NCBI RefSeq assembly: GCF_051903065.1
Contig: NZ_CP178438.1
Strand: one strand, 5' to 3'
DNA from: Escherichia coli
GTDB taxonomy: Bacteria > Pseudomonadota > Gammaproteobacteria > Enterobacterales > Enterobacteriaceae
DNA: 64,000 bases
The notes beneath the pieces were generated by a model. That model made no database searches. It saw nothing but the letters and a program-made list of their open reading frames with translations, and was not told the DNA's origin. Position 1 is the stretch's first letter. The number at the start of each line of letters is the position of its first letter. The position numbers were made by a program, and so were the translations under genes. This document shows, in pieces, positions 1 through 17,928 of this stretch.

Positions 1-1
1 G

Positions 2-250
2 CTGGAAGCGGCAATTGAATCGGGGCGCTTTCATCATGATGGCAATCCCATCATGACCTGGTGTATCGGCAACGTGGTCGGCAAAACCATTCCGGGTAAC
101 GATGATGTGGTGAAGCCCGTCAAAGAGCAGGCGGAAAACAAAATCGATGGTGCAGTTGCGCTGATTATGGCGGTTGGCAGAGCCATGCTGTACGAGAAAG
201 AAGACACGCTGTCTGACCACATTGAGTCCTACGGGATCCGCTCGCTTTAA
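2..250 (+). CDS. phage terminase large subunit, C-terminal end (gene starts upstream of window)
   Basis: Reading frame open to window start, stop at 248-250; sits immediately upstream of the portal gene as in HK97-like packaging modules. Confidence 0.45.
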
Positions 251-261
251 CTGAGGTAATT

Positions 262-444
262 ATGATCATGCTGATTCTCGCGCCTCTGGTAGGCGTGCTG
301 GGGGCGCTTTTGCTGGCGTATGGTGCCTGGCTGATTTATCCCCCGGCGGGGTTTGTTGTTGCCGGGGCGTTGTGCCTGTTCTGGTCGTGGCTGGTGGCGC
401 GATATCTCGACCGTACACAGCTGTCTGTTGGTGGAGGTAAATAG
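262..444 (+). CDS. small hydrophobic phage protein, function unknown
   Basis: 60-aa ORF with GAGG upstream; sequence is largely hydrophobic ([23 protein letters not shown]). Confidence 0.35.
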
Positions 445-1685
445 TGTTCTTTTCGGGATTATTTCAACGAAAAAGTGACGCACCGGTGACCACGCCAGCA
501 GAGCTGGCGGATGCCATCGGGTTGTCGTATGACACCTATACCGGAAAGCAGATCAGCAGCCAGCGGGCCATGCGACTGACGGCGGTTTTTTCCTGCGTCA
601 GGGTGCTGGCAGAGTCGGTCGGGATGTTGCCCTGCAATCTGTATCACCTGAACGGCAGCCTGAAACAGAGAGCCACCGGCGAACGTCTGCATAAGCTGAT
701 CTCCACGCATCCCAATGGCTATATGACGCCGCAGGAGTTCTGGGAGCTGGTGGTCACCTGTCTGTGCCTGCGGGGCAACTTTTACGCCTACAAAGTGAAA
801 GCATTTGGCGAAGTGGCTGAACTGCTGCCCGTCGATCCCGGTTGTGTGGTACCGAAGCTTAACAGTAGCTGGGAGCCGGTCTATCAGGTCACATTCCCGG
901 ACGGCTCCACGGATGTACTGAGCCAGGAAGATATCTGGCATGTGCGCACGCTGACGCTGGACGGACTGGTGGGGCTGAATCCCATCGCCTATGCCCGCGA
1001 GGCAATATCGCTGGCAGCTGCGACCGAAGAGCACGGGGCCAGACTGTTCAGCAATGGTGCGGTGACGTCCGGTGTGTTGCGTACAGAGCAGACGCTGTCG
1101 GATCAGGCTTATGAGCGCCTGAAGAAAGATTTTGAGGAGCGTCACACCGGGCTTGGCAATGCTCACCGCCCGATGATCCTTGAGATGGGGCTGGACTGGA
1201 AGTCGATGGCGCTGAACGCCGAGGACAGCCAGTTCCTGGAAACCCGCAAGTTTCAGCTTGAAGAAATCTGTCGTCTGTTCCGGGTGCCATTGCACATGGT
1301 GCAGAACACCGATCGCGCCACCTTCAACAATATCGAAGAGCTGGGGCTGGGATTTATCAACTATTCACTGGTGCCGTATCTGACCCGCATTGAGCAGCGG
1401 ATCAACACCGGACTGGTACGAAAAAGTAAGCAGGGCGTTTATTACGCCAAATTTAACGCCGGGGCGTTACTGCGCGGGGATATGAAGTCCCGTTTTGAAG
1501 CCTACGCCACCGGGATTAACTGGGGAATTTACTCTCCTAATGACTGCCGCGACCTGGAAGATATGAATCCGCGTCCCGGTGGTGATGTCTATCTCACCCC
1601 GATGAACATGACCACGAAACCCTCCGATGGCAGTAAAGCCGGTAAGCAGAAGGATAACGCCAATGCAGACGAAACAACGTCTTGA
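444..1685 (+). CDS. phage portal protein (HK97 family)
   Basis: 413-aa ORF, GTG start 6 nt after GGAGG; position and size typical of portal; followed by protease and capsid genes. Confidence 0.85.
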   Translation: MFFSGLFQRKSDAPVTTPAELADAIGLSYDTYTGKQISSQRAMRLTAVFSCVRVLAESVGMLPCNLYHLNGSLKQRATGERLHKLISTHPNGYMTPQEFWELVVTCLCLRGNFYAYKVKAFGEVAELLPVDPGCVVPKLNSSWEPVYQVTFPDGSTDVLSQEDIWHVRTLTLDGLVGLNPIAYAREAISLAAATEEHGARLFSNGAVTSGVLRTEQTLSDQAYERLKKDFEERHTGLGNAHRPMILEMGLDWKSMALNAEDSQFLETRKFQLEEICRLFRVPLHMVQNTDRATFNNIEELGLGFINYSLVPYLTRIEQRINTGLVRKSKQGVYYAKFNAGALLRGDMKSRFEAYATGINWGIYSPNDCRDLEDMNPRPGGDVYLTPMNMTTKPSDGSKAGKQKDNANADETTS

Positions 1686-2313
1686 TGTACCGCTGAGTCT
1701 GAAATCTGTCAGTGACTCCGGTGAGTTTGAAGGGTATGGCTCCGTCTTTGGTGTAAAGGACAGCCACGATGATGTGGTGATGTCCGGGGCATTTGCTGCT
1801 TCCCTGCGGGCGTGGAGTGACAGAAAAGCGTTACCTGCGCTGCTCTGGCAGCACCGCATGGATGAGCCCATCGGTGTTTACACCGAAATGAAGGAAGACG
1901 ATGTCGGGCTTTACGTCAGGGGTCGGTTGCTTATTGATGATGATCCCCTGGCAAAACGCGCACATGCACATATGAAGGCCGGTTCGTTAACCGGCCTTTC
2001 TATTGGGTACGTCCTGAAAGACTGGGAATACGACCGGAGCAAAGAAGCCTTTCTGCTGAAAGAAATCGACCTCTGGGAAGTCAGTCTGGTGACGTTTCCG
2101 TCTAACGACGAGGCGCGGATCAGCGACGTCAAGAACGCGCTGGCCCGCGGGGAAATCCCCGAACAGAAAAAAATCGAAAGAGTCCTGCGTGATGTCGGAC
2201 TCTCCCGTACCCAGGCCAAAGCATTCATGGCCGGGGGCTATGGCGCACTGTCTCTGCGCGACGCTGAGGATGTGGGCTCTGCACTGAATGCACTGAAAAA
2301 TCTGAACTTCTAA
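1663..2313 (+). CDS. prohead maturation protease (HK97 family)
   Basis: ORF 1627-2313; ATG at 1663 preceded by AGGA; portal-protease-capsid order. Confidence 0.8.
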   Translation: MQTKQRLDVPLSLKSVSDSGEFEGYGSVFGVKDSHDDVVMSGAFAASLRAWSDRKALPALLWQHRMDEPIGVYTEMKEDDVGLYVRGRLLIDDDPLAKRAHAHMKAGSLTGLSIGYVLKDWEYDRSKEAFLLKEIDLWEVSLVTFPSNDEARISDVKNALARGEIPEQKKIERVLRDVGLSRTQAKAFMAGGYGALSLRDAEDVGSALNALKNLNF

Positions 2314-2327
2314 TCAGGAGAAATACG

Positions 2328-16435: not shown

Positions 16436-16850
16436 GCCATTCAATATCTGGAGCACTGGAGGGATCAACCAGTTCCAGTGCGTCCAGATAATCCAGCCAT
16501 AAATTATATTGTTCCAGCTCGTCACCTTTCAGACGACCAATAGCAGCTTTGCCAGGCCACTGATGGGTATTGATGTAGGTATTGGCTTCTGAAACCAAAG
16601 ATATTTTTTTCATTTCAGCCGTCAATACCTCATCCTCTTTTGAAGGTGGTGGGGAATTAATCCATACTGGCCGTCCTGAACTGTCAGCGCCAATTTCTTT
16701 CCCTTCTGGATGCAGCCCAAGAAATTGCTCATATATTTCTCTGGTAATTTCAATAACATCATCAGGAAGCGTTCCCGCATCCTCATATTCTGGAAATAAT
16801 TCTTGCAGATAAAAACTTTTACTTCCGGGTGAAAAGAATACTGAGTTCAT
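16407..16850 (-). CDS. alternative tail fibre assembly protein (inverted copy)
   Basis: 147-aa ORF on opposite strand, convergent with 15833-16435; C-terminus similar in character (EWPxPP motif). Confidence 0.55.
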   Translation of the reverse strand: MNSVFFSPGSKSFYLQELFPEYEDAGTLPDDVIEITREIYEQFLGLHPEGKEIGADSSGRPVWINSPPPSKEDEVLTAEMKKISLVSEANTYINTHQWPGKAAIGRLKGDELEQYNLWLDYLDALELVDPSSAPDIEWPTPPAVQAR

Positions 16851-16852
16851 TC

Positions 16853-17307
16853 TTACCGTCCAATGATTAACGCTGATACGCTGGTATCTGAAGGAAAGGC
16901 TGCATTCAGTGGTTTGTCGACTTTGAACACAATCGTATTATTCCCCCTGACAGCGGCAAAAGAACAAGCCGCCGTCGCGTATGAACCTGTAATATTACTG
17001 GATACACCACCATAAGCTGTTGTTGATACCAGAGGGATAACGCCCAGCACCTTATTAGGAAATACAAAGGGCAATGTGGCTGTGGCAATATAAGACTTAT
17101 TAGAGCCTGTAATGGCATAAGCATTATCAGTCATTCCATTCATCGCCACTGGACCGCTTATACTTACAGTAACCATCTGAATGATTAGCCCGTCAGGTTG
17201 ACGAATCACAAAATTTCCATTGCCACCAGTAACCGTCCAGAAAGACATATCAGGGATTTGGTTTTCCCCGTTGCCCACATTCCGTTTTGCCGCTTCTCCC
17301 AAACCAA
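16853..17307 (-). CDS. alternative tail fibre variable C-terminal segment (promoterless until inversion)
   Basis: ORF open on minus strand up to the right crossover site; no independent start expected. Confidence 0.5.
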
Positions 17308-17312
17308 CGTTT
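17301..17312. other. right invertase crossover site (AAACC-AA-CGTTT)
   Basis: Inverted repeat of the site at 15392-15403. Confidence 0.5.
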
Positions 17313-17373
17313 ATGAAAATGCAGAAATAACGAGCAAATGGCATCATTCCTGCTTTTGTCAGGGAGATCTACC

Positions 17374-17928
17374 ATGCTTATTGGCTATGTACGTGTGTCA
17401 ACAAATGACCAGAACACAGATCTACAACGTAATGCGCTGAACTGTGCAGGATGCGAGCTGATTTTTGAAGACAAGATAAGCGGTACAAAGTCCGAAAGGC
17501 CGGGACTGAAAAAACTGCTCAGGACATTATCGGCAGGTGACACTCTGGTTGTCTGGAAGCTGGATCGGCTAGGGCGTAGTATGCGGCATCTGGTCATTCT
17601 GGTTGAGGAGTTGCGCGAACGTGGCGTTAATTTTCGCAGCCTGACGGATGCTATTGATACCAGCACACCGATGGGGCGTTTTTTCTTTCATGTGATGGGT
17701 GCCCTGGCTGAAATGGAACGAGAACTGATTGTTGAACGAACAAAAGCTGGACTGGAAGCTGCTCGCGCACAGGGACGAATTGGTGGACGTCGTCCCAAAC
17801 TTACACCAGAACAATGGGCGCAGGCCGGGCGATTAATTGCATCAGGCGTTCCTCGCCAGAAGGTGGCGATCATCTATGATGTTGGTATATCGACACTGTA
17901 TAAGAAGTTTCCGGTCGGAGATAAATGA
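17374..17928 (+). CDS. site-specific DNA invertase, serine recombinase (Pin/Gin/Hin family)
   Basis: N-terminus MLIGYVRVSTNDQNTDLQ with catalytic Ser; AGGGAG RBS; C-terminal HTH; located beside the invertible segment. Confidence 0.9.
   Translation: MLIGYVRVSTNDQNTDLQRNALNCAGCELIFEDKISGTKSERPGLKKLLRTLSAGDTLVVWKLDRLGRSMRHLVILVEELRERGVNFRSLTDAIDTSTPMGRFFFHVMGALAEMERELIVERTKAGLEAARAQGRIGGRRPKLTPEQWAQAGRLIASGVPRQKVAIIYDVGISTLYKKFPVGDK

Follow-up and report, generated by a model that had tools for sequence, protein, structure and literature searches.

What element occupies the left part of this stretch of Escherichia coli DNA (64,000 nucleotides of contig NZ_CP178438.1, RefSeq assembly GCF_051903065.1; the whole stretch is referred to hereafter as the window), and where does it end? 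A first-pass annotation, made from the sequence alone, had described positions 1-17928 as a mosaic prophage arm with HK97-type head genes, a Mu-like contractile tail and an invertible fibre. Our analysis assigns a probability of about 0.93 to a more specific reading, namely that window 1-21350 comprises the late, virion-building arm together with the terminal cargo of a temperate myophage of the SfV/SfI/e14 family, inserted at the threonine transfer RNA gene thrW beside proA.

The resemblance to SfV-like phages that had been suggested proved to be literal. Over window 1-15411, DNA identity to phages SfI, SfII, SfIV, SfV and vB_EcoM-689R6 (hereafter 689R6) is 96.6-97.4%, and a single gene order runs through all of them. 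An open reading frame listing combined with profile searches (Pfam, NCBIfam and PHROG) recovered every gene on the first-pass list in the order listed, from terminase to invertase; these genes are on the plus strand except for fibre chaperone B and fibre tip B, which are on the minus strand. Chance matches are not a concern because the E-values of the profile matches span 1e-9 to 1e-108.

The setting of the element was taken from the RefSeq annotation of the surrounding chromosome. The integrase gene, followed by tRNA-Thr and proA, is found 19 kb before the window begins, and attL is on this upstream side as well. Phage SfI and its kin have contractile tails, integrate at thrW (at thrW-proA for SfI) and are relatives of e14 (PMC3636060). 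Between the integrase and the window the record contains a lambdoid early region, the Q antiterminator, lysis genes, a P27-family terS and an HNH gene, in keeping with the earlier statement that the window contains no more of the prophage than its late region. That the window begins inside the terminase gene was likewise correct, as the RefSeq terL of 1734 nucleotides crosses the window start. The right-hand limit of 17928 was not, since the prophage arm runs on to 21350. Profile and PADLOC searches found no gtr genes at the prophage end, which is occupied by pin, PD-T4-3 and a retron. Because the gtr cassette is absent, the element is a member of the SfV/SfI/e14-type family yet is no serotype-converting phage.

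Is the head of the HK97 type? The head and neck genes are as follows.

2-250, plus strand: C-terminal 82 residues of the large terminase subunit, TerL (PF20441 TerL_nuclease, E=2e-11); the gene start lies upstream of the window
262-444, plus strand: YmfR-like small membrane protein (phrog_502; annotated ymfR; homologue of e14 ymfR)
444-1685, plus strand: HK97-family portal (PF04860, E=4e-108; TIGR01537 portal_HK97; 32% identity to HK97 gp3)
1663-2313, plus strand: HK97-family prohead serine protease, S78 (PF04586; TIGR01543 proheadase_HK97; 36% identity to HK97 gp4)
2328-3533, plus strand: HK97-fold major capsid protein (PF05065 over residues 115-398; TIGR01554 major_cap_HK97, 385 bits; 26% identity to HK97 gp5)
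3583-3783, plus strand: small conserved protein (phrog_1020; also in 689R6)
3786-4109, plus strand: gp6-like connector
4106-4516, plus strand: head closure protein
4491-4997, plus strand: Neck1/tail completion protein
4994-5554, plus strand: tail terminator

The three head families TIGR01537, TIGR01543 and TIGR01554 all scored above their curated cut-offs (the portal reached 260 bits, with the cut-off at 112), and the portal, protease and capsid proteins gave direct tblastn matches to HK97 gp3, gp4 and gp5. The N-terminal ~114 residues of the capsid protein lie outside the capsid domain and are delta-like, with the look of a coiled coil. The neck block (3786-5554) matched PF05135, PF05521, PF23840, phrog_879, TIGR01560 and TIGR01563. 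The claim that an HK97-type head is joined to a Mu-type tail is upheld on both sides, by profile families and by direct tblastn matches to both phages.

The tail genes follow immediately.

5563-5733, plus strand: DUF2635 protein, Mu gp38 homologue (PF10948; 42% identity to Mu gp38)
5717-7213, plus strand: contractile tail sheath, Mu gpL/gp39 homologue (PF04984, PF17482; 36% identity to Mu gp39 over 499 residues, E=9e-83)
7213-7569, plus strand: tail tube (PF10618, E=2e-33)
7569-7838, plus strand: tail assembly chaperone, 89 residues (PF10109 Phage_TAC_7)
7569-7993, plus strand: predicted -1 frameshift product of the chaperone, 141 residues (slip T_TTT_TTC at 7820-7826; the -1 segment is phrog_32181)
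7980-9812, plus strand: tape measure (PF10145; TIGR01760)
10107-11435, plus strand: DNA-circularisation protein, Mu gpN/gp43-like (PF07157 DNA_circ_N, E=4e-34; 43% identity to the N-terminus of Mu gp43)
11432-12511, plus strand: gp44-like baseplate protein, first gene of a Mu-type baseplate block (11432-15104)
12511-13059, plus strand: gp45-like baseplate protein, same block
13056-13484, plus strand: gp46-like baseplate protein, same block
13471-14529, plus strand: gp47-like baseplate protein, same block
14520-15104, plus strand: gp48-like (YmfQ) baseplate protein, same block

The first-pass annotation had said that its reading would be refuted by profile searches assigning the tail genes to a non-Mu lineage. 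When these searches were run, the outcome favoured that reading: they returned Phage_Mu_Gp45, Phage_Mu_Gp48, GP46, GpP-like, DNA_circ_N and DUF2635; the families found in the baseplate block were PF21683, PF22255, PF21929, PF06890 (Phage_Mu_Gp45), PF07409 (GP46), PF04865 and PF10076 (Phage_Mu_Gp48). By tblastn, Mu gp38, gp39, gp43-48 and Gin were matched collinearly, with 27-44% identity for the tail proteins (E=1e-11 to 9e-83), and the same range of identity holds for the gp44-48-like baseplate proteins, which are collinear with their Mu counterparts. A tail drawn from some other contractile lineage (P2-like, T4-like or a tailocin), with only superficial likeness to Mu, might explain why the tape-measure domain is of the generic TP901 type, why tblastn at 1e-3 found no Mu match for the tube, the chaperone or the tape measure, and why the Baseplate J and gpV-like domains are common to P2. 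Such an origin is barely credible against Mu-specific families in Mu order and direct matches to nine Mu proteins, and the tailocin version fails because head genes exist in the arm. We therefore keep to the Mu-type tail. Its chaperone had been called frameshifted, and a canonical slippery motif, T_TTT_TTC, does occur in the zero frame at 7820-7826, as expected if the longer product is made; the -1 open reading frame ends at 7993, overlapping the start of the tape-measure gene.

Does the fibre switch, and has it done so in nature? The features that bear on this lie between the baseplate block and position 17928.

15108-15833, plus strand: tail fibre in its current orientation, 241 residues (PF07484 Collar; constant to codon 97, then a StfE/HK97-Stf-like tip)
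15385-15410, no strand assigned: left crossover site, CTCTCGAAAACC-TT-GGTTTGGGGGAA, core 15397-15398, within the fibre gene at codon 97
15833-16435, plus strand: fibre chaperone A, TfaE-like (PF02413 Caudo_TAP; 87% identity to HK97 Tfa; 89% DNA identity to e14 tfaE)
16407-16850, minus strand: fibre chaperone B (PF02413 Caudo_TAP; follows the fibre gene in sister strain 23CRST027)
16853-17305, minus strand: alternative fibre tip B, at present promoterless (PF21882 Gp53-like_C)
17294-17319, no strand assigned: right crossover site, TTCTCCCAAACC-AA-CGTTTATGAAAA, core 17306-17307, just upstream of pin
17374-17928, plus strand: Pin-type serine invertase, 184 residues (PF00239, resolvase; PF02796, HTH_7)

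An inverted repeat (15392-15411 versus 17293-17312) resolves into the two 26-bp crossover sites. The invertase, whose start had been placed at 17338 and is at 17374, is 78% identical to Mu Gin (PDB Gin structure 3uj3, E=1e-93) and shares 92% DNA identity with K-12 pinE. The TT and AA cores are in equal codon phase, and inversion in silico fused tip B in frame to give a 247-residue fibre. Because the left site falls within codon 97 and the cores are in phase, inversion would replace the 241-residue fibre A with the 247-residue fibre B and set chaperone B behind it, and chaperone B would then be expressed. In sister strain 23CRST027 the fibre coding sequence is annotated at 744 nucleotides. When the window was inverted in silico it became collinear with 23CRST027 over 10,401 nucleotides with 0 mismatches, whereas in native order the alignment splits into three pieces. 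Since the inverted window equals 23CRST027, the switch has flipped between near-clonal isolates, and the invertible segment is found in both orientations in nature. The invertible fibre of the earlier description is thus borne out, by the two inverted 26-bp sites and by a sister strain in the opposite orientation.

These data also bear on whether the segment is a fossil, its repeats persisting after flipping has ceased. A loss of this kind has a parallel in K-12, where the homologous stfE of e14 is a pseudogene, and the enhancer evidence in pin comes down to a single match to the Fis consensus. It is nevertheless highly improbable here: a pair of isolates from a single study is set apart by precisely this inversion and otherwise shows 0 mismatches across 10.4 kb, the Pin protein has its full length and an N-terminal catalytic-serine region that aligns to Gin, and the reading frames of the two fibre forms and the two chaperones are all open. 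A working switch remains our preferred reading.

Where do the alternative tips come from? The Mu-like description held for the tail; by sequence, the fibre and chaperone cassettes are not homologues of Mu S/U and are nearer to e14 StfE/TfaE and to HK97/lambda Stf/Tfa. Tip A has 56% identity to HK97 Stf and 84% DNA identity to e14 stfE, and tblastn at 1e-3 found no match of the fibre or chaperones to Mu S, U, U' or S'. Judged by sequence, the Mu-like character of the fibre end is confined to the switch design and the invertase. Over its first 140 residues the tip B product has 86% identity to the fibre of SfI, and its start is similar to the fixed fibre that SfI and SfV carry. Because near-identity to the Sf phages stops exactly at the crossover site, that site is also a joint of the mosaic. 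Phage SfI itself carries one crossover-like site in its fibre gene (L013, 3778-3803) that matches the left site of e14 exactly; neither an invertase nor a second crossover site was found in SfI. The lone site looks like a relic of an invertible cassette, or like its landing pad.

Can the prophage still leave the chromosome? Its right end is set by an insertion sequence.

21351-22118, minus strand: IS1 truncating the prophage (PF03400; IS1 ends; unlike 9-bp flanks)

This IS1 copy has no 9-bp target-site duplication. In strain 2014C-3075 the arm continues 286 bp past the IS1 point to attR, a 63-nucleotide repeat of thrW, beyond which lie yagU, ykgJ, the ecp operon, fdeC, rcl (rclABC/R) and ykgEFG, up to betA. 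Here IS1 joins the retron side straight to the betA side, and relative to 2014C-3075 some 32 kb (~32 kb), attR included, is missing. A search of the window for the 63-nucleotide repeat gave chance matches of 11-12 nucleotides only. Because the IS1-associated deletion took attR and ~32 kb with it, excision by Int/Xis should be impossible and the element fixed in place; as judged from its sequence, the prophage is no longer able to excise by this route.

It might be argued instead that the prophage is complete and inducible, with IS1 a simple insertion in cargo DNA, so that excision and plaque formation could still take place. All of the late genes in the window are intact (24 of 24), with lengths that match those of the isolated phage 689R6, and the invertase switch remains active. 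Yet attR, which lies just 286 bp past the IS1 point in 2014C-3075, is nowhere in the window, the IS1 without a target duplication abuts betA where ~32 kb has gone, and RefSeq flags terS, rusA and others as frameshifted. We regard an inducible prophage as very unlikely and an element locked in place by the IS1 deletion as the better reading.

What does the element carry beyond pin? The cargo consists of a restriction gene and a retron.

17986-18759, minus strand: PD-T4-3/CMoRE GIY-YIG type IV restriction endonuclease (PADLOC PD-T4-3, E=3e-140)
19319-19451, plus strand: putative retron noncoding RNA (msr-msd), with a1 at 19319-19330, candidate branching G at 19331 and a2 at 19440-19451
19471-21306, plus strand: type I-C retron reverse transcriptase (RT)-Toprim fusion of the Ec67/Eco2 family (PADLOC RT-Toprim_I-C, 737 bits, full length)

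The endonuclease is ~98% identical over 257 residues to PDB 9u75, the crystallised CMoRE, which is a type IV restriction nuclease dependent on hydroxymethylcytosine or glucosylated hydroxymethylcytosine (hmC/ghmC) (PMC12923530). The RT-Toprim protein aligns end to end with Ec67 (PDB 9lm3/9i2f, E=6e-137), and the NAxxH, YADD and VTG motifs as well as the Toprim E/DxD are kept. The candidate a1/a2 pair is a 12-nucleotide perfect inverted repeat with arms 109 nucleotides apart, ending 20 nucleotides before the RT start. Its predicted fold energy is -43.3 kcal/mol (z=-2.9), and its placement directly upstream of the RT, with a1/a2 and a branching G, fits the layout described for Eco2/type I-C loci. 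No retron msr family matched 18700-19600 in Rfam searches, whether run at the gathering threshold or at E<=1. Among 5426 complete E. coli genomes, 19 have this retron allele. Its copies, none of them less than 99% identical, are distributed over at least three prophage contexts.

The slot after pin (window 17929-19300) varies from genome to genome: e14 and 689R6 have McrA there, PK8276 a DUF262 protein, and another strain a type II restriction-modification system. The Eco2 retron is triggered by the T-even nuclease DenB. Since CMoRE cuts hmC/ghmC DNA and the Eco2 relative is triggered by DenB, the stack could target T-even phages. That the post-Pin position in SfV/e14-type prophages is a dedicated swap-slot for defence genes, with CMoRE and the retron forming a two-layer trap for T-even phages, is a doubtful proposal that we offer as speculation. 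The two anti-T-even defence genes carried by the strain bear on its phage susceptibility.

One further feature lies among the tail genes.

9806-10095, plus strand: 3' remnant of a moron gene, 79 codons, plus terminator (phrog_5485, positions 101-176 of 176)
10063-10095, plus strand: intrinsic terminator of the moron (promoter/terminator scan)

The possibility that orf79 (9806-10045) is a new small gene was considered and rejected, as it is the 3' remnant of a 176-residue moron that is intact elsewhere. A 389-nucleotide deletion removed the 5' part; the gene is whole in strain PF9285, where the full-length form was confirmed, and the remnant sequence is present in 177 of the 5426 E. coli genomes. 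It matched no Pfam family and no DNA in the phage collection. The promoter/terminator scan found sites no commoner than in shuffled sequence, and the terminator at 10063-10095 was the sole convincing one.

Several points weigh against the reading of the region as a whole. The gene functions of the arm are assigned by homology. The residues of the HK97 chainmail crosslink have no clear equivalents in the capsid protein, where the weak BLAST alignment ends before HK97 N356/E363. For the Fis enhancer in pin, there is one consensus match (nucleotide 71, shared with gin and K-12 pinE), and a simple pattern search gave no second. The retron noncoding RNA call draws on one inverted repeat and its position, and the alleles lack variation for covariation. 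Finally, the RefSeq frameshift flags on several early genes and terS may reflect sequencing errors or real decay.

The window is near-identical to the minus strand of 23CRST031 (NZ_AP045800.1), with 2 single-nucleotide polymorphisms and 2 homopolymer indels over 28 kb; the idea that it is exactly NZ_AP045800.1 was rejected on account of these differences. The indels are at window 3557 and 14568. At the latter, a run of seven C residues (C7) leaves the gp48-like/YmfQ gene intact, while NZ_AP045800.1 has C6 and its YmfQ is called frameshifted. Other prophage genes marked as frameshifted in NZ_AP045800.1 may likewise be sequencing artefacts. Outside the prophage, window 22.3-64 kb holds bet, yah, prp, cod, cyn and lac genes and one IS903B, and tandem clusters of naRNA4 (REP/BIME-type) occur in this core chromosome at 36636-36983, 47643-47807 and 52675-53126.

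How might the element work? The gene families suggest that a Q-antiterminated late transcript would yield the head proteins, and that TerL would package DNA through the HK97-family portal into an HK97-fold capsid whose N-terminal ~114 residues may act as a scaffold that is cut off by the S78 protease. Neck proteins would link this head to the Mu-type contractile tail, with its sheath, tube, tape measure and gp43-48-type hub and baseplate, and the tail chaperone would be made in two forms through a -1 ribosomal slip at T_TTT_TTC. By recombining the two inverted 26-bp sites, the Pin/Gin-type invertase, as the sequence shows, flips the 1.9-kb segment and so switches host range, the constant fibre N-terminus being joined in frame either to tip A with chaperone A (the current state) or to tip B with chaperone B. 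The cargo, to judge from published homologues, protects the host by means of the CMoRE nuclease and the single-protein type I-C retron.

The region is a textbook case of modular phage evolution, with an HK97-type head, a Mu-type tail, an e14-type switch and defence morons. A fibre switch that is active between sister isolates can confuse the comparison of assemblies, and the IS1-associated deletion, which also took the ecp pilus, fdeC and rcl loci, could have a phenotype for the lineage. The value of the region is mainly for annotation, real but ordinary: the literature or the RefSeq annotation already covers its architecture, its near-identical relatives, the e14-type switch and the two cargo genes.

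How, then, does the element compare with known systems? With HK97 it shares the portal, S78 protease and capsid families, adjacent and ordered alike, and the Stf/Tfa-like tip and chaperone (56% and 87% identical); the head proteins, in contrast, are only 26-36% identical to those of HK97, whose tail is non-contractile and lambda-like. With Mu it shares the collinear tail and the layout of the gix sites (annotated G-segment boundaries), AAACC-NN-GGTTT, with one site within the fibre gene. Its head, packaging and replication genes are unlike those of Mu, and the RefSeq context annotation of the prophage contains no transposition genes. The RT of the window is about half identical to that of Ec67 and has ~25 extra residues around residues 85-114.

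The Sf phages and 689R6 share with the window the near-identical stretch from terL to the fibre crossover, plus gene order; the Sf phages have the thrW-proA insertion site in common with it, and in 689R6 an invertase likewise follows the fibre genes. The Sf phages differ in having gtr O-antigen genes after a fixed fibre and a single crossover-like site; in the window this place is taken by the invertible segment with pin, PD-T4-3 and the retron. A further feature of the window element is the moron remnant, which comes after the tape-measure gene and before the DNA-circularisation gene. The cryptic prophage e14 of K-12 has lost the stretch equal to window 852-13741 (most head and tail genes), is inserted at icd rather than thrW, has McrA in place of PD-T4-3 and the retron, and its stfP/tfaP are unlike cassette B in DNA. 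Even so, DNA identity between e14 and the window is 92-97% from terL through ymfR to the portal start, from jayE through ymfQ to the fibre start, and in pin. The right crossover site is identical to that of the e14 P segment and the left differs by 1 mismatch, and in both elements two opposed tip/chaperone cassettes, arranged alike, are followed by the invertase gene (pinE in e14) and then by a type IV restriction gene.

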